The position numbers and the translations under genes are program-made. The notes under the pieces were generated by a model, which saw only the letters and a program-made list of their open reading frames with translations, searched no databases and was not told where the DNA came from. 64,000 bases of DNA. Origin: an uncultured Lachnobacterium sp. (GTDB lineage: Bacteria > Bacillota > Clostridia > Lachnospirales > Lachnospiraceae). This document shows, one piece after another, positions 5,954 through 35,440 of the stretch. The stretch spans positions 16,111-80,110 of the forward strand of contig CALGXR010000024.1 in NCBI GenBank assembly GCA_937935345.1, in the 5' to 3' direction. Numbering within the stretch: the stretch's first letter is position 1; each line of letters begins with the position of its first letter.

Positions 5954-7309
5954 ATGAAAAGAGAATCATTTAAATCACGTCTGGGATTTATACTGGTAAG
6001 TGCAGGATGCGCTATAGGCATAGGCAATGTATGGCGTTTTCCGTATGTGACAGGTCAAAACGGTGGCGGTATTTTTGTACTGTTTTACCTTATATTTCTG
6101 GTATGCATGGGACTTCCGGTGCTTACGATGGAGCTTGCTGTAGGCCGAGCCAGCAGAAAAAGTGCTGTGATGAGCTACAAGGCTCTTGAGAAAGAGGGCA
6201 GTAAATGGCATATTCACGGATGGATAGCCATGCTTGGCTGCTACATGCTTATGATGTATTACACAACAGTCTCAGGCTGGATGGTTGCGTATTTCTTTAA
6301 ATTTTTAAAGGGAGATTTTACATCAGGCATGAATGCGGATGACACGGCGGCAGCATTTGGAAACCTGCTTGCAGATCCAAAGCAGATGGCTTTCTGGATG
6401 ATAGTTACGGTAGTGCTTGGATTTTGGGTATGCAGCCGTGGTCTGCAGAATGGACTTGAGAAAATCAGTAAATTTATGATGAGTGCGCTGCTTTTGCTTA
6501 TTATAGTGCTCGCGGTGCACAGCATTACGCTTTCAGGTGCGTTAGAGGGAGTGAAATTCTATCTTGTTCCAAATCTGGATGCGGTTTCTGAAATTGGAAT
6601 AAAGAATGTCATAACAGCAGCCATGAATCAGGCATTTTTTACGCTTAGCCTGGGCGTAGCTGCGATGGAGATATTCGGCAGCTATATGGAAAAGGACCAC
6701 ACTCTGGCAGGAGAAGGGGCAAAAATCTGTGCTCTCGATACATTTGTGGCTATCATGTCAGGGTTTATCATTTTCCCGGCATGCTTCAGCTACGGAGTGG
6801 AGGTAGGCGCAGGTCCGAGCCTTATCTTTATCACTTTGCCAAATGTATTTGTAAATATGCAGGGAGGCCGCATATGGGGATGTCTTTTCTTCATGTTTAT
6901 GACCTTTGCCAGCTTTTCAACCGTCATCGCGGTATTTGAGAATATTATGTCATTTGCCATTGATATGTTTGGCTGGTCCAGAAAAAAGGCTGCACTCGTA
7001 AACGCAGTGATAATACTCATTGCGAGTATGCCGTGTGTGCTTGGATACAACGTGTGGAGCAGTCTGCACCTTATAGGAGGCAGGGATGTGCTTGACAGCG
7101 AGGATTTTATAGTAAGTAACCTCCTTCTTCCGATTGGCTCACTTGTCTATCTGCTTTTTTGTGTGACAAAGTGGGGCTGGGGCTTTGATAAATATATAGA
7201 TGAGGCAAATACCGGAGCAGGACTTAAGATTTCGAGGAAGCTTAAGCCGTATTTTCAGTTCATACTGCCGCTTTTGATTTTGTTTATTTTTATACAGGGA
7301 TTGATATAG
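5954..7309 (+). CDS. Sodium-dependent transporter, neurotransmitter:sodium symporter (NSS/SNF) family
   Basis: N-terminal NSS signature GFILVSAGCAIGIGNVWRFPY and a 12-TM topology. Confidence 0.8.
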   Translation: MKRESFKSRLGFILVSAGCAIGIGNVWRFPYVTGQNGGGIFVLFYLIFLVCMGLPVLTMELAVGRASRKSAVMSYKALEKEGSKWHIHGWIAMLGCYMLMMYYTTVSGWMVAYFFKFLKGDFTSGMNADDTAAAFGNLLADPKQMAFWMIVTVVLGFWVCSRGLQNGLEKISKFMMSALLLLIIVLAVHSITLSGALEGVKFYLVPNLDAVSEIGIKNVITAAMNQAFFTLSLGVAAMEIFGSYMEKDHTLAGEGAKICALDTFVAIMSGFIIFPACFSYGVEVGAGPSLIFITLPNVFVNMQGGRIWGCLFFMFMTFASFSTVIAVFENIMSFAIDMFGWSRKKAALVNAVIILIASMPCVLGYNVWSSLHLIGGRDVLDSEDFIVSNLLLPIGSLVYLLFCVTKWGWGFDKYIDEANTGAGLKISRKLKPYFQFILPLLILFIFIQGLI

Positions 7310-7344
7310 TTACATATTTTTAATCAGACAGGAGAGTGTAAAAC

Positions 7345-8160
7345 ATGTTAGATCAGAATACTTTTATAGAGACAGTACAGAGCGTGGCTGAGATTATCCG
7401 TACATCAGCGGAGCCTATTGGCAGAGATGAAATCATGTCTTATTTTAAGGATATGGAGCTCAATAAGGCACAGGAGGATATGGTTTTTGAATTTCTCATC
7501 ACACCGCATGAACAGGAGGATGAGAGTGCAGGAGATTCGATGGATGCCATAGCCAGTGGGAAGAATGATAAGGATAAGCAGGATAATGAAGCTGAGCCCG
7601 ATATAGACGAGGACAGCCTCATTCCGGATTCACCTATGTTTAGGATGTATCTTGAGGAGCTTGAGGAGATACCTGATTACACAAAGGCTGAGCAGGACGA
7701 TATGTACAAAAAGCTGCTCGCAGGTGATGAGAGTGTGATACACACTATATCAAATTTCTGGCTTAAAAGTGTGCTTGCCATGGCAAAGAAGCTGGCTGTT
7801 AGCTCAGAGGGCTTTGAGGATGTAGTACAGGAGGGAAACATGGGGCTTTTCATGTGTCTTACCGAGCTCTGCGGCTGTGGGGATGAGATAGATGTGGAAA
7901 AAGAGCTTTTGGATGCCATAGAGGAGTCTATGAAAGCATGTATCAGGGAGCAGACAGGTGAGGATGAGAGCGAGAATACTGTGGTAGGAAAGGTTTCATT
8001 AGTAAACCGTGCAGTGGAGAAATTAAAATCCGATAAGGGCTTTGAGCCGAGCCTTAGTGAGCTTTCAGGCTACACCGGTGTGGATGAGGAAGAGCTTGAA
8101 AACCTTCTTGAGCTTATCAAAAAGGCTGATGTGGAGAAAAATAAACAGGACAGTAAATAA
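7345..8160 (+). CDS. Acidic sigma-70-like protein retaining only regions 1.2-2.2 (no regions 2.3-4); function unknown
   Basis: Residues around 100-175 align with SigA regions 1.2-2.2: FRMYLEEL..GDES..VLAMAKKL..FEDVVQEGNMGL versus RMYLKEIG..GDEE..VVSIAKRY..FLDLIQEGNMGL. There is no region 2.3/2.4 aromatic block and no region 4 HTH. The N- and C-terminal parts are strongly acidic. Confidence 0.5.
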   Translation: MLDQNTFIETVQSVAEIIRTSAEPIGRDEIMSYFKDMELNKAQEDMVFEFLITPHEQEDESAGDSMDAIASGKNDKDKQDNEAEPDIDEDSLIPDSPMFRMYLEELEEIPDYTKAEQDDMYKKLLAGDESVIHTISNFWLKSVLAMAKKLAVSSEGFEDVVQEGNMGLFMCLTELCGCGDEIDVEKELLDAIEESMKACIREQTGEDESENTVVGKVSLVNRAVEKLKSDKGFEPSLSELSGYTGVDEEELENLLELIKKADVEKNKQDSK

Positions 8161-8228: not shown

Positions 8229-9080
8229 ATGGCACGATTTACTAATCAGGCACAGCTTCGTTATGGCAACAATGTAGCCAATTCAAATATAGCAGTCGGA
8301 GAAATACTTGAGGTGCTTTCTGCTACAAAAACGGCAGTCAAAAACACCTACAATCAAAACGATACAATAACCTATGTGGTGAGCATCGTAAACTCCGGAA
8401 ATACCGCGATAAACGGTCTGACACTTTCTGATAATCTAGGTGCTTATACCTTTAACACCAACACTCTTGTACCATTAACCTATGTTAATAACACCGCAAA
8501 ATACTATACAAACGGCACACTCCAGGCAGCTCCTGCAGTAACCCAGGGACCGCCTCTTAGCATCACAGGCATAAGTGTCCCGGCAGGGGGCAATGCAACT
8601 GTCATCTATGAGGCAGCATTAAATGAGTATGCTCCTCTTGGCACAGAGGCATCTGTCACAAACACTGCTACAGTAAGCGGCACAGGAATCACTCCGGTTA
8701 CAGCAGCAGAGACAGTAAATGCCGAGGCTGCACCAAATCTTGCGATTACAAAGTCTGTAAGCCCGGTTCCGGTTACAGAAAACGGCACACTGACCTATAC
8801 CTTCAGGATTCAAAACTATGGAAGTGTTGCGGCAACAAACACTACAGGCGTGGTTATAACAGACACATTTGCTCCTGTTTTGAACAATCTTACAGCCGCA
8901 TTAAACGGCACAGCCTGGACTGCAGCTACAGATTATACCTACGATGAGGCGACAGGCACATTTTCGAGCACGGCAGGTGCAATCACTGTTCCGGCGGCAA
9001 CCTACACACAGGATAGCACAACAGGAGCGTGGGTTGTCACACCGGGCGAGAGCACACTTGTCATCACAGGAACCGTGTAG
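8229..9080 (+). CDS. DUF11 (conserved repeat domain) protein with two repeats and no signal peptide
   Basis: Two DUF11-type repeats (…TKTAVKNTYNQNDTITYVVSIVNSGNTAINGLTLSDNLG… and …ITKSVSPVPVTENGTLTYTFRIQNYGSVAATNTTGVVITDTFAP…). T/N/A-rich. No obvious signal peptide. Confidence 0.6.
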   Translation: MARFTNQAQLRYGNNVANSNIAVGEILEVLSATKTAVKNTYNQNDTITYVVSIVNSGNTAINGLTLSDNLGAYTFNTNTLVPLTYVNNTAKYYTNGTLQAAPAVTQGPPLSITGISVPAGGNATVIYEAALNEYAPLGTEASVTNTATVSGTGITPVTAAETVNAEAAPNLAITKSVSPVPVTENGTLTYTFRIQNYGSVAATNTTGVVITDTFAPVLNNLTAALNGTAWTAATDYTYDEATGTFSSTAGAITVPAATYTQDSTTGAWVVTPGESTLVITGTV

Positions 9081-9238
9081 TGGCAGAGGTGATTAATAAG
9101 GTTTAAGAATTGTTTAATTTAGTGGGATAGAAGTTGAAAAATATATGCAAACTATGTAAAATAAATATAGCTGTTTATGAATAAGATGATGCAGATGATC
9201 ATCAGCAGTTTAAATTGATTAACCGGGGGATAAGACAA

Positions 9239-10192
9239 ATGAATAATGCACAGTTAGTGATAGACGAAGTAAAAAAGGCAGTAAAGGGCAAGGATGATTG
9301 TATCATCAAGGCATTTGCTGCCTTTTTGGCAGGTGGACATATACTGCTTGAGGATGTGCCGGGAGTGGGCAAGACCACGCTTGCAGTAGCCTTTTCAAGG
9401 GCGATGGCTCTTGTGAATCACAGGGTACAGTTTACTCCGGATGTGCTGCCTGCGGATATTCTTGGCTTTTCGATGTATCAGAAGCAGACCGGATCATTTG
9501 TGTACCGTGAGGGCGCTGTGATGTGCAATCTGTTTCTGGCAGACGAGATTAACAGGACAAGTCCCAAAACGCAGTCAGCGCTTTTGGAGGTCATGGAGGA
9601 GGGAAATGTCACTGTGGATGGCGAGAGTAGAAAAGTCCCAAAGCCGTTTATAGTAATGGCCACGCAAAATCCAAAGGGCAGCGCCGGCACACAGCTGTTG
9701 CCGGAGTCGCAGCTTGACAGGTTTATGATATGCATGAGCATGGGATATCCATCGCATGAGGCAGAGGTGGATATCGCAAAGGGCAGGAGCATGAAGGCAG
9801 ATGAGTATACGATAAAGCCTGTTATGAATGCACAGGGGCTTGTTGAGATGCAGGGAGAGGTCGAGCAGGTATTTATCCATGACAGTATTTATTCATACAT
9901 TGTGGATCTGGTTGATGCGACAAGGACGAGTCCGTACATTGAGCTTGGAGTGAGCCCGAGAGGTACGATTGCGTGTGTGAGGATGGCAAAGGCATATGCG
10001 TATCTAAATGGGCGAAGCTATGTCATACCGTCTGATGTGGTTTCTGTATTTGCGGATGTGACAAAGCACAGAATTGTGCTAAATACCAAGGCGAGAGTGT
10101 CACACGTATCAGAGCTTTCAGTGATAGATGAGATACTAAAGGCTGTTAAGCAGCCGACAATTTATGTGAAAAAGGCAGGTAATCGTGATTAG
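9239..10192 (+). CDS. MoxR-family AAA+ ATPase
   Basis: Walker A LEDVPGVGKT, Walker B LFLADEINR, sensor motifs, and the C-terminal MoxR lid. GGGGGA RBS before the ATG at 9239. The TTG at 9215 given in the ORF track is less likely. Confidence 0.85.
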   Translation: MNNAQLVIDEVKKAVKGKDDCIIKAFAAFLAGGHILLEDVPGVGKTTLAVAFSRAMALVNHRVQFTPDVLPADILGFSMYQKQTGSFVYREGAVMCNLFLADEINRTSPKTQSALLEVMEEGNVTVDGESRKVPKPFIVMATQNPKGSAGTQLLPESQLDRFMICMSMGYPSHEAEVDIAKGRSMKADEYTIKPVMNAQGLVEMQGEVEQVFIHDSIYSYIVDLVDATRTSPYIELGVSPRGTIACVRMAKAYAYLNGRSYVIPSDVVSVFADVTKHRIVLNTKARVSHVSELSVIDEILKAVKQPTIYVKKAGNRD

Positions 10193-11222
10193 TTTTTTGA
10201 TAGGAATAATTACTGCAGCAGTAGTTTTTTATATGTCGATGATATACGGCAATGCCGCGCTGGCGCTTTTGGGCAGCTTTATGTGTGTGTTTATGGCGCT
10301 GACATTTATAGCATTGCTTGTAAAGGCGCACAGGGCAGTGGCAGCTATAAATATTCCGATAGCTATCGCCACACAGGGTGATAGCATCAGGGTAAGCCTT
10401 TCCTGCCGGCTGAAGGAGACAGGCTTTGATGGTGTTAAATACCGTGTAAAGGTGAAAAATAATTTATCCGGAGAAAAAAGTACAAAATGGCTGTCTGGAG
10501 GCAATGATTTTTTGTACAGCACGAAGTGCTGCGGCAATTATGAATTTGAGCTTGCAAGGATAAGGCTATATGATTTTTCGAGGCTTTTTTATGTCACAAA
10601 AAGAGTTAAAAAATATGTAAATGTTGAGGTGATTCCGCAGATTGATGAGATTCCTGTGAGGATAACGGACAGAGTGAGAAATTTCTTTGGGGATTCTGAT
10701 ATCTATGATGATATAAGGCCCGGGTATGATCCGTCGGAGCTGTTTGACGTCAGAGAGTTTCAAAACGGTGACAGGCTGCAGAGTGTGCACTGGAAGCTTT
10801 CTGCAAGGACAGATGAGCTGATGGTAAAGGAAAACAGCCTGCCAAAGGCATGTGCCGTGGCCGTAGTCGCAGACTTAAGGGGGATAAAGAAGGGCAGACA
10901 GGCGGATGCTTTTATGAAGCTTCTTGTCTCGCTTTCCTTTTCACTTATGGATCAAAAATGCCCTCATTATGTGGCATGGTATGATACCTTAATAAACGAT
11001 ATTGTGAGAGCCCGAGTGGATGACGAGGAGGGCTTTTATATATTCTTGAACAGTTTCCTTAAAATAAAGCCGGATACAAAGACGGATGCGCGTTTTTTGT
11101 ATGAGGAAAAGTACAGGGCAGAAAGGCTTGTGTGTCTACTTAGCGTGGACGGAAGGCTTCAGATAAAAAAGGGAGAGGAGATAGTTGGCAGAGCAGATGA
11201 AAAAAACGAGATTGTCATTTAG
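10185..11222 (+). CDS. DUF58 domain protein (vWA-like), the usual partner of MoxR
   Basis: N-terminal TM helices, then a DUF58 core (DxR..FQNGDRLQSVHWKLSART). The GTG start overlaps the moxR stop. Confidence 0.7.
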   Translation: MISFLIGIITAAVVFYMSMIYGNAALALLGSFMCVFMALTFIALLVKAHRAVAAINIPIAIATQGDSIRVSLSCRLKETGFDGVKYRVKVKNNLSGEKSTKWLSGGNDFLYSTKCCGNYEFELARIRLYDFSRLFYVTKRVKKYVNVEVIPQIDEIPVRITDRVRNFFGDSDIYDDIRPGYDPSELFDVREFQNGDRLQSVHWKLSARTDELMVKENSLPKACAVAVVADLRGIKKGRQADAFMKLLVSLSFSLMDQKCPHYVAWYDTLINDIVRARVDDEEGFYIFLNSFLKIKPDTKTDARFLYEEKYRAERLVCLLSVDGRLQIKKGEEIVGRADEKNEIVI

Positions 11223-13827
11223 GAAAAACTGCTGGCAGAGGTCTGATACAAATGAGATAAAGCCTGATTACAATAATGCGTTTACAGTGCTAAGCGTTCT
11301 GCTTACGGAGCTTGCCAATGCAGCAGCAGCAGTATTTCTTACGGTATGTGCGGTGTCTGTCGTGAATACGACTATTTCCCATGTGAGGTGTCCGTATTAT
11401 GTGTATTTATGGCTGTTTATTTTTTCGGTGATAAGCGGCTTTATAAACAGACTTGCATCGCTTGATGCAAGAAGGTGGGTGCGCCATGCGATAAATACAG
11501 GTCTGCTGCTTGTATTTGTGCTAGGAGTGTTTATCGCAAACTGGCAGGCTGCGGCGCATATAAAGGATGGCTTTTTATATGTAAAGGGCAGGTATCTTGA
11601 GATAATAAATGTGTACTATGGCACTTCGTTTGCATGCCCGAAGGGCGATAAGGCCTTTGCAGGGGCATTTGTGGGCTTTGTATCGTTTATAGCTATGCTT
11701 TTTCTGGTGACACTTGCGGTTCAAATTAAAAGAAGACGTATGCTTACATTATTTCCAACGCTTATGCTTGCGGTGCAGCTGTGCATAGGCAAAAGTCCAA
11801 GCGTCAGTGAAGTCGTTATGCTCACGCTTTGTACACTCTGGTGCCTTATCGCAGATGGCAACGCACGCACAGTGGCAGGATATGAGGCAGACGGCAGTGC
11901 ACAGGGCAATGAGGCTTTAAGGATAGTACCGGCGTTTTTATACATGGCGGCAGTGTCAGCAATACTTTTTATATGTGTATTTTCGTTTAAACCTCTTGCT
12001 GATACACTTGCCGATAAAAAGCCACAGATGCTTGCCTTTCAAAAGGATTTGGAGGGCAGCGTAAAGTCGTTCTTCAGCTCGGGAATTGATTTGCAGGATG
12101 GCACAGTTAGCAATCACTACCCAAGCTACAGCGGAAAAACAGTGATGACGGTAGAAGCATCATCAGGAGCGTCCTCTAATATTTACCTGAGGAGCTTTTA
12201 CGGTGATACCTATGAGAATGGCAGATGGATTAAAAAGTCTGATTTTTCCCGGATGGAAAAAGAGTATCACGATGCTTCAAGGATGACAGCGTGGCAGAAT
12301 GCAATCGGATTAGCCACGCTGCTTTATGGCTATTATGATGATGAGACTAATCCGGCCACCGAAAAGTATACAATCACGATGGAGAAGCTTTCCACCAAAT
12401 ACACCTATTTGCCGTACTGTATCGATCCATACAGTATAGATGCCAAAGGGGATATAGATTTTGACGAAGACTTTTTTATCACAAAGGATAAAGGAACAAA
12501 GACTATCGAGGTATCGGCGTGTCCCGGCTTTTTCGATGGTAGTCTGGAAACGTCCAGCCTTGAGCCCGAGCAGCCTCTTGAGGTCAACAATGATTTCTAT
12601 GCGGCATACAATAATTATGTAATGGAAAACTATACTGAAAAGCAGGGCGGTGACGGGATTGTTTCGGAAGATGCAAAGTGGCTTCTTAGGACAGGACAGC
12701 TCACAAGCAATATGATGTACACAGGCTATATAAGAGAAAATGATGCCAACAGGATTGCGGCAGCACAGCTGGTGCAGCAGTTTCTGACATCGAAGGCTTT
12801 TAAGTACAGCAAAAATCCTCCTTCCACAGGCGGTAAGGATGTGGTTGAGAACTTCCTCTCAAATAGCAGAGAGGGCTTTTGCGTGCATTTTGCATCGGCT
12901 GGCACGATGATACTCAGACAGATGGGGGTTCCATGCCGCTATGTAAGCGGATACTGTGCAAAGGGGGACAGCTTCAAATCCGGTGAAAATGATGGGGATA
13001 TATGCGAGGTGAAGGATTCACAGTCGCATGCCTGGGTTGAAATATATCTGGATGATTTCGGATGGATTCCTGTGGAGATGACACCGGGATATTATGAGAA
13101 CGTGACAGGTATGAATCAGTTTGACTATATTGGTGTCAACGGAAAGAAAACAAACACCGGTGCTGCTTATCATGATACTGAGCAAATGAATGATACTGCG
13201 GCAGATGAAGATAATGCAGATGAAGATGCAGTAAATGAAGATACAGAAAATACAGATGTAAAAAATGATGGCACAGCAAACAGTACATCAAGCCAATTTG
13301 TATCAGGTGATGGCAGTGAGAATGCTTTGGGTTCACGGTCAGGTGCTGATAAACGCACAGACACTCATAGCTCAAAAACAGGACTTCATATACCACCGGC
13401 GATTTTGAAAACAGTACTCTGTGTGATTTTTCTGACGGCACTTACAGCCACAATAGTTTACATCAAAAAGCGAAGAAACATTTTGTGGGAAGCAAGACTT
13501 GCCCAAAGAGTGAAAAAGGGCCGATACAGCAGGGCTGCCATCATGATAAACAACCGCATCTATAAGGAACTGGGGCATCCTTCAAAGAACAGGACAGATG
13601 AGCTTTATCTGGCTAACCTGAGGGAAAAATACTGCGGACCGGATTATTGCGGAATCCACTGGGACGAGTACATGCGCATCATACAAAAGGCTGTGTATTC
13701 ATCAGAGGGTATCACAGAGGAGGAATGCTTTATGGTGATGGAGACATGGAGACATCTGGAGAAAAAAGACATTAGACATAATTCACAAAAAAACATGTAT
13801 AAAAACAGCATGATTAACAAAAAATAA
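11185..13827 (+). CDS. Transglutaminase-like (TgpA-type) polytopic membrane protein with an acidic linker and a C-terminal cytoplasmic domain
   Basis: N-terminal multi-TM region. Transglutaminase core with Cys/His/Asp context (GFCVHFASAGTMILRQMGVPCRYVSGY … SHAWVEIYLDDFGWIPVEMTP). D/E-rich low-complexity segment, then one more TM. Overlaps the DUF58 3' end in another frame. Confidence 0.8.
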   Translation: MAEQMKKTRLSFRKNCWQRSDTNEIKPDYNNAFTVLSVLLTELANAAAAVFLTVCAVSVVNTTISHVRCPYYVYLWLFIFSVISGFINRLASLDARRWVRHAINTGLLLVFVLGVFIANWQAAAHIKDGFLYVKGRYLEIINVYYGTSFACPKGDKAFAGAFVGFVSFIAMLFLVTLAVQIKRRRMLTLFPTLMLAVQLCIGKSPSVSEVVMLTLCTLWCLIADGNARTVAGYEADGSAQGNEALRIVPAFLYMAAVSAILFICVFSFKPLADTLADKKPQMLAFQKDLEGSVKSFFSSGIDLQDGTVSNHYPSYSGKTVMTVEASSGASSNIYLRSFYGDTYENGRWIKKSDFSRMEKEYHDASRMTAWQNAIGLATLLYGYYDDETNPATEKYTITMEKLSTKYTYLPYCIDPYSIDAKGDIDFDEDFFITKDKGTKTIEVSACPGFFDGSLETSSLEPEQPLEVNNDFYAAYNNYVMENYTEKQGGDGIVSEDAKWLLRTGQLTSNMMYTGYIRENDANRIAAAQLVQQFLTSKAFKYSKNPPSTGGKDVVENFLSNSREGFCVHFASAGTMILRQMGVPCRYVSGYCAKGDSFKSGENDGDICEVKDSQSHAWVEIYLDDFGWIPVEMTPGYYENVTGMNQFDYIGVNGKKTNTGAAYHDTEQMNDTAADEDNADEDAVNEDTENTDVKNDGTANSTSSQFVSGDGSENALGSRSGADKRTDTHSSKTGLHIPPAILKTVLCVIFLTALTATIVYIKKRRNILWEARLAQRVKKGRYSRAAIMINNRIYKELGHPSKNRTDELYLANLREKYCGPDYCGIHWDEYMRIIQKAVYSSEGITEEECFMVMETWRHLEKKDIRHNSQKNMYKNSMINKK

Positions 13828-33331: not shown

Positions 33332-34099
33332 ATGGATAACAATAATAAAGAAAAATTTCATGAGAATTATATAGAGGGCAGAAATGCCGTGCTTGAGGCT
33401 TTCCGTTCGGGAAAGACAATAGATAAGCTTTTTGTGCTTGACGGCTGTCAGGACGGACCAATAAAGTCGATTACAAGAGAGGCCAGAAAGCATGATGCTA
33501 TCATAAACTATGTTGCAAAGGAAAGACTTGATCAGATGTCTGAGACAGGCAAGCATCAGGGTGTCATTGCAGTTTCGGCAGCATATGAGTATGCTGAGGT
33601 CTCTGACATACTGGAAAATGCCGAAAGAAAGGGTGAGCCGCCTTTTATCATCATACTTGACGGTATAGAGGATCCGCACAATCTCGGTGCAATAATCCGT
33701 ACCGCAAACCAGGCGGGTGCACATGGTATTATCATACCGAAAAGGCGTGCAGTGGGACTTACACCAACGGTGGCAAAGACATCTGCCGGTGCGATAAACT
33801 ATACACCTGTTGCCAAGGTTACCAATATCTCAAATACCATAAAGGAGCTTAAGGAAAGGGGCATGTGGTTTGTATGTGCCGATATGGGTGGTACCACCAT
33901 GTATGACTTAAACTTAACAGGTCCTATAGGTCTTGTAATAGGCAATGAGGGCGACGGAGTCAGCAAGCTTGTGAAGGAAAACTGTGATATGGTTGCATCT
34001 ATTCCTATGGTTGGCGATATCGATTCACTGAACGCATCGGTTGCGACAGGCGTGCTTGCATATGAGATAGTCAGACAGAGACTTAAGAGTGGAAAGTAG
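33332..34099 (+). CDS. rlmB: 23S rRNA (guanosine-2'-O)-methyltransferase RlmB/YacO (SpoU-TrmH family)
   Basis: N-terminal substrate-binding domain plus SpoU methylase motifs (…ILDGIEDPHNLGAIIRTA…, …IPMVGDIDSLNASVA…). Confidence 0.8.
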   Translation: MDNNNKEKFHENYIEGRNAVLEAFRSGKTIDKLFVLDGCQDGPIKSITREARKHDAIINYVAKERLDQMSETGKHQGVIAVSAAYEYAEVSDILENAERKGEPPFIIILDGIEDPHNLGAIIRTANQAGAHGIIIPKRRAVGLTPTVAKTSAGAINYTPVAKVTNISNTIKELKERGMWFVCADMGGTTMYDLNLTGPIGLVIGNEGDGVSKLVKENCDMVASIPMVGDIDSLNASVATGVLAYEIVRQRLKSGK

Positions 34100-34165: not shown

Positions 34166-34771
34166 GTGGAAGATTACAGCGCATATACGGATGAAGAGCT
34201 TATTACGAGGCTTCATAATGACAAAAATGCCAATGGTGACGATAACGAAATCATGGACTATATATTGGAAAAGTATAAGCCGCTTGTGCGCAAAAAGACG
34301 AATGCACTTTACCTGATAGGCGGTGAGAATGACGACCTCATTCAGGAGGGCATGATTGGCCTGTTTAAAGCAGTCAGAGACTATAAGAGCGACAGGGAGT
34401 CTTCCTTTTGCAGCTTTGCACAGCTGTGCATCACCAGGCAGCTATGCTCGGCACTTGAGGCCTCAAACCGAAAGAAGCATATGCCGCTTAATACCTATAT
34501 ATCCTTTTCGCAGAGTGACAGCGATGGCACAGAGCTTGAGGAAATGCTGCATGATGATATTGCAAGTCCGGAGCAGCTTCTCATAGAGCAGGAAAAATTT
34601 AAGGAATTTAAGGAACAATTGTGGAATAAACTGAGTAATATGGAGAAAAAAGTGCTACAATTGTATCTGGAAGGAAATAATTATACAACGATAGCGCATA
34701 TGCTTGGTAAATCAGATAAATCAATTGACAATGCACTATCCCGTATCAGACAAAAGCTAAAAAGAAAGTAG
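34166..34771 (+). CDS. sigH: RNA polymerase sigma factor SigH (sigma-70 family, ECF-like size)
   Basis: Region 2 DLIQEGMIGLFKAVRDY and region 4 HTH (…YTTIAHMLGKSDKSIDNALSRIRQKL). Position after cysS-mrnC-rlmB matches the conserved Firmicute sigH locus. Confidence 0.8.
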   Translation: MEDYSAYTDEELITRLHNDKNANGDDNEIMDYILEKYKPLVRKKTNALYLIGGENDDLIQEGMIGLFKAVRDYKSDRESSFCSFAQLCITRQLCSALEASNRKKHMPLNTYISFSQSDSDGTELEEMLHDDIASPEQLLIEQEKFKEFKEQLWNKLSNMEKKVLQLYLEGNNYTTIAHMLGKSDKSIDNALSRIRQKLKRK

Positions 34772-34783
34772 GTGAAGCTTGTT

Positions 34784-35440
34784 ATGGAGTTTTCAAGAAT
34801 AGGTGAACACACTATAAAATGTGTTATTTCAGAAGAAGAGATATATGATCTGGGATATACAATGGATGAAATCATGAGCAATGGCGAGCGCACCCAGGAG
34901 TTTATGAATCAGATATTTGACATGGCTTCAGAAGAGTTTGGAACTGATTTTAATTCGGGAATCAAGACTGTGAGAGCGGATTTTCTGGCGGATCACACAC
35001 TTTCTCTGACGTTTTCTGAGCATCCTGCTACCGAGGGTATGATGGAGCATCTGAAGGATATTGTTAATGGACTGCTTAATTCATTGCCGGCTGAGGCTGT
35101 AGCGGCTGAGAAGGATAAGAAAGGCAGGGAAACTGTTAAAAAGCAGGATATGGTGTCTGTTGTAATGTTTATCTTTGAGAAATTTGATGTAGCTGTCAGA
35201 TTTGCAAAGATGATTAAAGGCTTGCCAATGCCATTCTCGCAGCTTTTTAAGTTTGAGGGAGAGTACTTTATGAGCATGGATTTATCGGGCTATGATGAGC
35301 ATGAGCTTGAGAAGATGTCTGTCATAGCAGATGAGTATGCAGATGATATCATTGCAGGGGCTGACAAAAGAGCTTTTCTTATGGAGCATGCAAGGGTTAT
35401 TCTTGATGAAAAGGCTATTGAGAGCCTGGCACAGCTGTAA
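34784..35440 (+). CDS. mecA: Adaptor protein MecA (ClpC adaptor)
   Basis: MEFSRIGEHTIKCVISEEEIYDLG resembles the MecA N-terminus (MEIERINEHTVKF.IS..DL..RG). Acidic C-terminal ClpC-binding domain. AGGTGA RBS before the ATG at 34784. Confidence 0.65.
   Translation: MEFSRIGEHTIKCVISEEEIYDLGYTMDEIMSNGERTQEFMNQIFDMASEEFGTDFNSGIKTVRADFLADHTLSLTFSEHPATEGMMEHLKDIVNGLLNSLPAEAVAAEKDKKGRETVKKQDMVSVVMFIFEKFDVAVRFAKMIKGLPMPFSQLFKFEGEYFMSMDLSGYDEHELEKMSVIADEYADDIIAGADKRAFLMEHARVILDEKAIESLAQL

Follow-up and report, generated by a model that had tools for sequence, protein, structure and literature searches.

What does a bacterium do with a protein that corresponds to the front two-thirds of its primary sigma factor, including the surface by which sigma factors dock on RNA polymerase (RNAP), but not the residues that read a promoter? 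This question is raised by an open reading frame (ORF) at positions 7345-8160 (+ strand) of a 64,000-nucleotide stretch of DNA from an uncultured Lachnobacterium sp. (GenBank assembly GCA_937935345.1, contig CALGXR010000024.1, positions 16,111 to 80,110 of the forward strand), which we refer to as the window. An earlier note, made from the sequence without database searches, had described the 271-aa product as a free-standing, highly acidic fragment of a sigma70 factor. We found it to be genuinely homologous to Firmicute SigA, and the reading that we favor, with moderate confidence, is that it represents a Lachnospiraceae-specific SigA paralogue remodelled into a promoter-blind pseudo-sigma, which would occupy the sigma site on RNAP.

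The ORF begins with ATG, has no internal stop and runs to position 8160, stop codon included. As had been proposed, it possesses its own ribosome-binding site, an AGGAG Shine-Dalgarno sequence at 7330-7334 (+), read directly, which lies 10 nt 5' of the ATG. The gene upstream, encoding an SNF-family transporter, stops at 7309, leaving 35 nt between the two genes. A scan for promoters and terminators around the ORF returned nothing above shuffled expectation, and no terminator in this 35-nt gap. The high acidity of the product was borne out by computation, with an isoelectric point (pI) of 4.16 and a net charge of -41 (68 D+E vs 27 K+R); the mean net charge in its family is about -30. The motifs on which the sigma assignment had originally been based could all be located, RMYLEEL at aa 100-106, GDES at aa 127-130, VLAMAKKL at aa 143-150 and FEDVVQEGNMGLF at aa 157-169.

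How real is the likeness to a primary sigma factor? When the single sequence was used as a query, Pfam gave two matches, both below threshold, to Sigma70_r2 (aa 141-169) and Sigma70_r3 (aa 219-260; model positions 5-46 of 78). The NCBIfam model for Firmicute RpoD aligned over its positions 15-172 with aa 13-170 (E 1.4e-11), and phmmer against PDB chains retrieved SigA from Staphylococcus aureus, Bacillus subtilis and Clostridioides difficile with E values of 3e-6 to 4e-5. We then used a family profile built from an alignment of 74 sequences (alignment A2, mean column identity 27%), to which the family counts given below refer. This profile matched SigA from B. subtilis (7ckq_F) with an E value of 1e-32, from C. 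difficile with 1.8e-32 and from S. aureus with 1.9e-31, and Escherichia coli RpoD with about 1e-20. Profile positions 12-254 are colinear with residues 14-262 of the 371-residue B. subtilis SigA, the alignment ending at ILKIAQE, directly before the finger formed by region 3.2. With the same 74 sequences, AlphaFold2 produced a confident all-helical model with a mean predicted local distance difference test (pLDDT) score of 87.7, falling below 50 only at aa 61-81 in a linker, which supersedes a run with 14 sequences only (pLDDT 62.8). A Foldseek search of the PDB returned top matches that were all sigma70-family sigmas at probability 1.00, including 1ku2 (regions 1.2-3.1 of Taq sigmaA). The closest relatives are group 1 SigA proteins, not extracytoplasmic function (ECF) sigmas. 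These findings, from profile search and structure prediction alike, establish genuine homology between the product of the ORF and Firmicute SigA, with a similarity far above chance.

This homology covers more of SigA than regions 1.2-2.2, to which it had first been limited. On the + strand, the ORF encodes, in order, 1) a three-helix domain resembling sigma region 1.1, a hallmark of group 1 sigmas (aa 1-55, 7345-7509), recognized by the RpoD model and, in 17 of the 74 family members, by Pfam Sigma70_r1_1, and predicted with pLDDT 90-96, 2) a disordered acidic linker of variable length with a net charge of -13 (aa 56-95, 7510-7629), 3) region 1.2 (aa 96-126, 7630-7722), in which RMYLEEL, with the invariant Y102, aligns to VRMYLKEIG of SigA, 4) regions 2.1-2.2 (aa 127-175, 7723-7869), supported by Sigma70_r2 and by the SigA alignments, and containing FEDVVQEGNMGLF (7813-7851) in the region 2.2 helix, 5) a degenerate and acidified counterpart of regions 2.3-2.4 and of the 2.4/3.0 loop (aa 176-212, 7870-7980), as mapped with HMMER, 6) a helical domain resembling regions 3.0-3.1 (aa 213-262, 7981-8130), and 7) a short lysine-rich tail followed by the stop (aa 263-271, 8131-8160), which ends where the SigA 3.2 finger would be expected to start. 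The stretch after region 2.2 had been described as acidic and not sigma-like. It is indeed acidic, but it is not unrelated to sigma, since it is colinear with SigA, the distance between the QEGN and GxEP motifs being 68 residues in one of the two proteins and 69 in the other.

The same picture was obtained for the family. Among the 74 members, Pfam detected Sigma70_r3 in 57, Sigma70_r2 in 54, Sigma70_r1_1 in 17 (best E 3.9e-15) and Sigma70_r1_2 in 5, so that the claim that region 3 is missing has to be dropped. Sigma70_r4 and Sigma70_r4_2 were found in none of the 74, nor in any of the nine longest members, which span 315-387 aa. In the seven of these nine that have a Sigma70_r3 match, it stops at model positions ~42-48 of 78, a few residues from the C terminus, and with no r4 match either, their extra length is therefore linker. 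As a positive control, a SigH-like ORF elsewhere in the window (34166-34771) gave both r2 and r4 matches. The hidden Markov model searches thus upheld the predicted lack of a region 4 helix-turn-helix, but not the expectation that the N-terminal sigma regions would be found alone, since r3 was detected as well. The region 3.2 finger is also missing, the 271-aa protein and the full-length members all ending at approximately SigA residue 262.

The protein therefore shares with Firmicute SigA/RpoD (7ckq_F; C. difficile 7l7b_F) its fold, the QEGN core-binding motif and a colinear arrangement of sigma1.1, linker, 1.2, 2.1-2.4 and 3.0-3.1, but it stops before the finger, has no domain 4, and has its -10 and extended -10 readers replaced. 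A nearly identical span of domains is found in the Taq sigmaA fragment 1ku2, and N-terminal laboratory fragments of sigma70 of this kind bind core RNAP via sigma2. However, these fragments are artificial cuts that keep -10 recognition, whereas the 271-aa protein is natural, evolves separately and has an acidified surface.

Which sigma functions have been kept is best seen in region 2.2. All sigma70-family factors dock on the clamp helices of the beta-prime subunit via this region, and in sigma70 the residues D403, Q406, E407 and N409 (E. coli numbering), which touch the beta-prime coiled-coil, are the main core-binding determinant. Their counterparts are D159, Q162, E163 and N165, and no feature of the family is better conserved than the region 2.2 motif to which they belong, DxxQEGNxGL. 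Complete invariance across the 74 sequences is limited to three columns, Y102 in the MYL motif of region 1.2 and E163 and N165 (74/74 each) in region 2.2. Position 159 is D in 66 sequences and E in the other 8, Q162 is present in 70, and D159, Q162 and G164 are each conserved in at least 89%.

The opposite is seen in regions 2.3-2.4, where the roles of the melting, recognition and backbone-contact positions of sigma70 are established. Residues were mapped onto SigA by pairwise HMMER alignment, which was checked by motif spacing and by predicted helices, those at aa 157-175, 184-204 and 208-231 agreeing with the sigma 2.2, 2.3-2.4 and 3.0 helices. All the melting and recognition positions that were mapped carry replacements, for the most part acidic ones: Y425 is replaced by I182, F427 by V184, Y430 by E187, W433 by D190 (E or D in the family), W434 by A191, Q437 by E194, T440 by K197 and R441 by A198. 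The tryptophan dyad (WW) is found in 0/74 members. The basic backbone contacts are similarly gone, with K414 replaced by M170, K418 by E174, R448 by G205 and R451 by E208 (D or E in 52/74), as are the extended -10 positions H455 (T212) and E458 (G215). Composition statistics, which are independent of the alignment, agree: the 2.3-2.4 segment has a charge of -10 and no aromatic residues in the 271-aa protein vs +5 and six in B. subtilis SigA, and family means of -5.7 and 1.8, respectively. The earlier proposal that no -10 recognition block is present is thus correct, and an intact region 2.3-4 was not seen, the 2.3-2.4 readers being replaced and both the finger and r4 being absent.

These replacements bear on one alternative, in which the protein would be the N-terminal half of a split sigma factor, supplying sigma2 and sigma3, with -35 recognition coming from a separate sigma4 protein. 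Two-subunit sigmas do exist, such as SigO-RsoA of B. subtilis (PMC7826278, PMC8103513), and the point of truncation coincides neatly with a domain boundary, the one that follows region 3.1. SigO-RsoA, and likewise T4 gp55 with gp33, resemble the 271-aa protein in placing sigma function or fold in a protein without domain 4. However, those systems can still melt and recognize DNA, and their dedicated partners are usually co-encoded, whereas here Y430, W433/W434, Q437 and T440 have given way to acidic or aliphatic residues, the basic backbone contacts are replaced too, and there is no conserved partner gene. Across the 43 loci identified in a scan of species-representative genomes (see below), no sigma4 gene or other co-encoded partner supplying the missing sigma domain is conserved next to the gene, although a partner might be encoded elsewhere, and an ECF sigma gene lies downstream in 3/43 loci (L009, L010 and L012). 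We consider a split sigma to be quite unlikely.

The region 3.0-3.1-like domain offers a different clue. Within aa 213-262, the family conserves K216, A223, L227, E239, Y243, T244 and E250, of which K216, Y243, T244 and E250 are near-invariant and differ from SigA, where T, D, M and K, respectively, are found. From the pattern of conservation, this suggests that these four residues may mark a family-specific interaction surface in the sigma3-like domain. Could the protein then be a decoy, titrating an anti-sigma or another SigA-binding regulator and so modulating SigA with no binding to RNAP? There is a precedent in PhyR, whose degenerate ECF-sigma-like domain binds the anti-sigma NepR (PMC4551977, PMC5898713). 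The concept would be the same, a sigma-derived domain devoid of DNA recognition regulating by protein-protein mimicry; in the family, sigma-like surfaces are conserved while DNA-reading residues are lost, and the conserved sigma3-like residues could form the partner interface. However, PhyR has its origin in an ECF sigma (sigma2 plus sigma4), carries a fused receiver domain and binds NepR rather than RNAP, whereas the 271-aa protein derives from a group 1 SigA, lacks sigma4 and has kept the core-binding motif. Pfam found no receiver or other signalling domain in it (neither a Response_reg nor an r4 match), and neighbors vary across the 43 loci, with no cognate anti-sigma or sigma gene, or any other adjacent partner, in a conserved neighborhood. 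Furthermore, conservation peaks at precisely the residues that bind the clamp helices of beta-prime, a universally conserved target, while a lineage-specific interface with an anti-sigma would be expected to drift in a family whose identity has fallen to 27%. We know of no SigA-specific anti-sigma in this group. A PhyR-like decoy therefore appears improbable to us.

We wondered how widespread the family is and whether it is maintained by selection. A search of 5.8 billion proteins yielded 524 relatives, none with a functional name: two carry names in their source, "hypothetical protein" from Agathobacter, and most are unnamed. When 1.84 billion cluster representatives were searched exhaustively with a profile, 2783 matches were obtained at E <= 1e-3, 570 at E <= 1e-10 and 107 at E <= 1e-30. 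The best 150 of these matches measure 84-390 aa, the full-length ones being mostly ~240-340 aa and the longest 387 aa, and the family comprises at least 150 clusters at 50% identity. In species-representative genomes, we identified 43 loci, nearly all in Lachnospiraceae, with hosts in Agathobacter, Roseburia, Lachnobacterium, Frisingicoccus, Butyrivibrio, Otoolea and Hespellia. Representatives at the divergent end of the family, with ~27% identity, are annotated "hypothetical protein [Lachnospiraceae bacterium]". The family thus appears to be confined to Lachnospiraceae, a range that was judged from contig titles and N-terminal peptide patterns and may exceed the 43 loci. Two metagenome-assembled genomes carrying the gene are labelled Paludibacteraceae (Bacteroidota) and Acutalibacteraceae (L041, CAVGED010000043.1, and L004, CAVABC010000054.1, respectively). 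L004 shares a complete Agathobacter-type neighborhood at 75-94% identity, and these labels probably reflect errors of binning or taxonomy rather than a wider host range.

Selection was quantified as the ratio of nonsynonymous to synonymous substitution rates (dN/dS), by the Nei-Gojobori method, against orthologues at 75-98% identity. The ratio is 0.05-0.11 over the whole gene, a sign of strong purifying selection, and by segment it is 0.02-0.05 for sigma1.1, 0.03-0.05 for regions 1.2-2.2, 0.05-0.08 for the degenerate 2.3-2.4 helix and 0.27-0.44 for the linker. Because the degenerate helix itself shows such low values, its acidified surface is being kept by selection and is not decaying. These findings weigh directly on the possibility that the gene is the functionless remnant of a decaying sigA duplicate, or an annotation artefact. 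In favor of this, public sources offer no name other than hypothetical protein and the single-sequence Pfam matches fall below gathering thresholds. Against it stand the dN/dS values, degenerate segment included, an architecture that is intact in the 43 species-level loci and at least 150 clusters, the lack of internal stops and the confidently predicted fold. The earlier statement that this is not a truncated pseudogene is thus supported, and the data on selection and conservation all but refute the remnant reading, which we regard as extremely improbable.

The linker is where the family varies most. This segment (columns 61-142 of alignment A1) is a hot spot for insertions and deletions, with differences of 30-60 aa among close orthologues. 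The 271-aa allele in the window is ~30 residues shorter than the commonest Agathobacter variants (300-301 aa; clusters of 654 and 3124 sequences), and some close relatives have up to ~60 additional linker residues, the folded domains being nearly identical throughout. An acidic disordered linker is nevertheless always present despite the variation in its sequence, which, together with the low pI and the strongly negative charge of the protein and of the family at large, is what a polyanionic mimic of nucleic acids would look like. In such a scenario, the sigma scaffold would bring in the linker and the acidified 2.3-2.4 face, which would displace DNA or RNA from RNAP, much as the delta subunit does, or inhibit other DNA-binding proteins. 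Two comparisons lend it some substance. Clostridia generally lack the acidic delta subunit of RNAP, encoded by rpoE, which is missing from most of them (PMC8655204), and T7 Ocr, an acidic DNA mimic, binds RNAP and competes with sigma (PMC7064336). Like the role considered here, those of delta and Ocr pair strong acidity with a known or proposed association with RNAP and antagonism of nucleic-acid or sigma binding. However, the folds are unrelated, delta consisting of a HARE-HTH domain and an acidic tail and Ocr being a DNA-shaped dimer, whereas in the 271-aa protein the acidic disordered segment is internal, between sigma1.1 and 1.2, and Pfam finds no delta-type HARE-HTH domain. The resemblance would be a functional analogy only, and a speculative one. 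Moreover, constraint is weakest in the linker and strongest in the folded sigma domains. We therefore view polyanionic mimicry as an unlikely explanation in its own right, and it overlaps with, rather than excludes, a pseudo-sigma bound to RNAP.

Taken together, because the region 2.2 motif is kept while -10 recognition, -35 recognition and the finger are absent, the most economical reading is a core-binding protein unable to initiate transcription, in which we infer RNAP binding from sequence conservation. The protein belongs to the sigma70 superfamily by homology, yet we would not class it among the sigma factors, because three defining features are missing, namely the recognition residues of regions 2.3-2.4, the finger of region 3.2 and domain 4. 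If it does act as a promoter-blind pseudo-sigma, it would use region 2.2 to dock on the clamp helices of beta-prime, with sigma1.1 and the acidic linker lying inside the DNA channel or close to it, and would present its acidic face where the -10 non-template strand is normally held by a sigma factor. It would be unable to direct initiation, because sigma4, the sigma finger and the DNA-reading residues are all lacking. Such a protein would compete with bona fide sigma factors for the clamp-helix site, and possibly also with NusG, because the NGN domain of NusG binds the same helices (PMC5314768). It might hold RNAP in a non-initiating, DNA-repelling form, and its role could be that of an endogenous sigma competitor or of a factor for RNAP storage or recycling. 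Because the parts of a sigma factor that have to be displaced by nascent RNA are absent from it, it could in principle persist on elongating polymerase as well.

Several points weigh against this reading. In the first place, a protein that lacks sigma4 and the 3.2 finger should have a lower affinity for core RNAP than full-length SigA, and it could compete effectively only if highly expressed or under regulated conditions. In addition, conservation of the region 2.2 surface could reflect a different partner that recognizes the same face, and core binding leaves the conserved K216, Y243, T244 and E250 without explanation. Finally, the residue-by-residue mapping of regions 2.3-2.4 leans on a low-identity alignment, although motif spacing and predicted helices support it.

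Does the genomic neighborhood point to a function? In the window, the pseudo-sigma gene is preceded by genes for a sodium:alanine symporter and the SNF-family transporter, and followed, at 8229-13827, by overlapping or tightly spaced ORFs encoding a DUF11 protein (283 aa), a MoxR ATPase (AAA_3), a DUF58 protein and a TgpA-type transglutaminase (880 aa), a block in which PADLOC found no match. The earlier note had suggested a functional tie to this block, which did not hold up. The arrangement is restricted to about four very close Agathobacter loci (L001, L002, L004 and, in part, L003) and is absent from the ~38 others, where neighbors are unrelated and variable; in L004, two additional genes lie between the sigma-like gene and DUF11. 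No neighbor or operon partner is conserved across the 43 loci. Elsewhere, the gene is found beside a response regulator and histidine kinase, mtnN and luxS, a Lon-like ATPase and phosphoenolpyruvate carboxykinase, argS, enolase, trmD, or mnmA and rsmB. In Roseburia faecis and relatives (L009, L010 and L012), the ECF sigma gene mentioned above (~173 aa) lies ~100-180 bp downstream of the pseudo-sigma gene, and an upstream GGDEF / response-regulator / HD-GYP gene overlaps its start by 11-20 nt, a lineage-specific arrangement.

The gene is single and chromosomal, and an origin in phages, plasmids or defence systems was rejected. Matches on viral contigs are ordinary RpoD-like sigmas at 20-35% identity and those on plasmids are rpoD genes, and PHROGs yielded no more than a weak sigma match and PADLOC nothing. 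One family member, 43% identical, lies on an 18.5-kb entry deposited as "UNVERIFIED: Bacteriophage sp." (L121, MT835772.1). This entry has no phage hallmark genes and encodes MatE, a peptidase S51, Dus, an ABC-transporter/C39 peptidase and HlyD, and it appears to be bacterial DNA that was labelled as phage in error. The 64-kb window contains no canonical sigA. The compact sigma at 34166-34771 (+), with Sigma70_r2 and r4_2 domains, lies between ORFs 33332-34099 and 34772-35440, following a SpoU-type rRNA methylase and preceding a MecA adaptor, which resembles the rlmB-sigH region of B. subtilis.

In full-text literature searches, we found no description of a sigma-fold protein in which core binding is kept and promoter recognition lost, nor any of this Lachnospiraceae family. 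Competition between sigma factors for limited core RNAP is central to how bacterial gene regulation is understood, and it is known to be modulated by anti-sigma factors, Rsd, 6S RNA, Crl, delta and phage proteins. Our fullest proposal, which is only tentative, is that in a lineage without delta the pseudo-sigma might sit at the sigma2 site of core or elongating RNAP, compete with all sigma factors and perhaps with NusG, and sequester or recycle the enzyme. Hosts of the family include butyrate producers that rank among the most abundant commensals of the gut (Agathobacter and Roseburia). If binding to RNAP is true, it would represent a new mode of global transcription control in these bacteria, and a natural tool in which binding of sigma to core is separated from DNA recognition. 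On the tentative proposal above, the Lachnospiraceae would have evolved a new class of global regulator by turning a sigma factor into its own antagonist.

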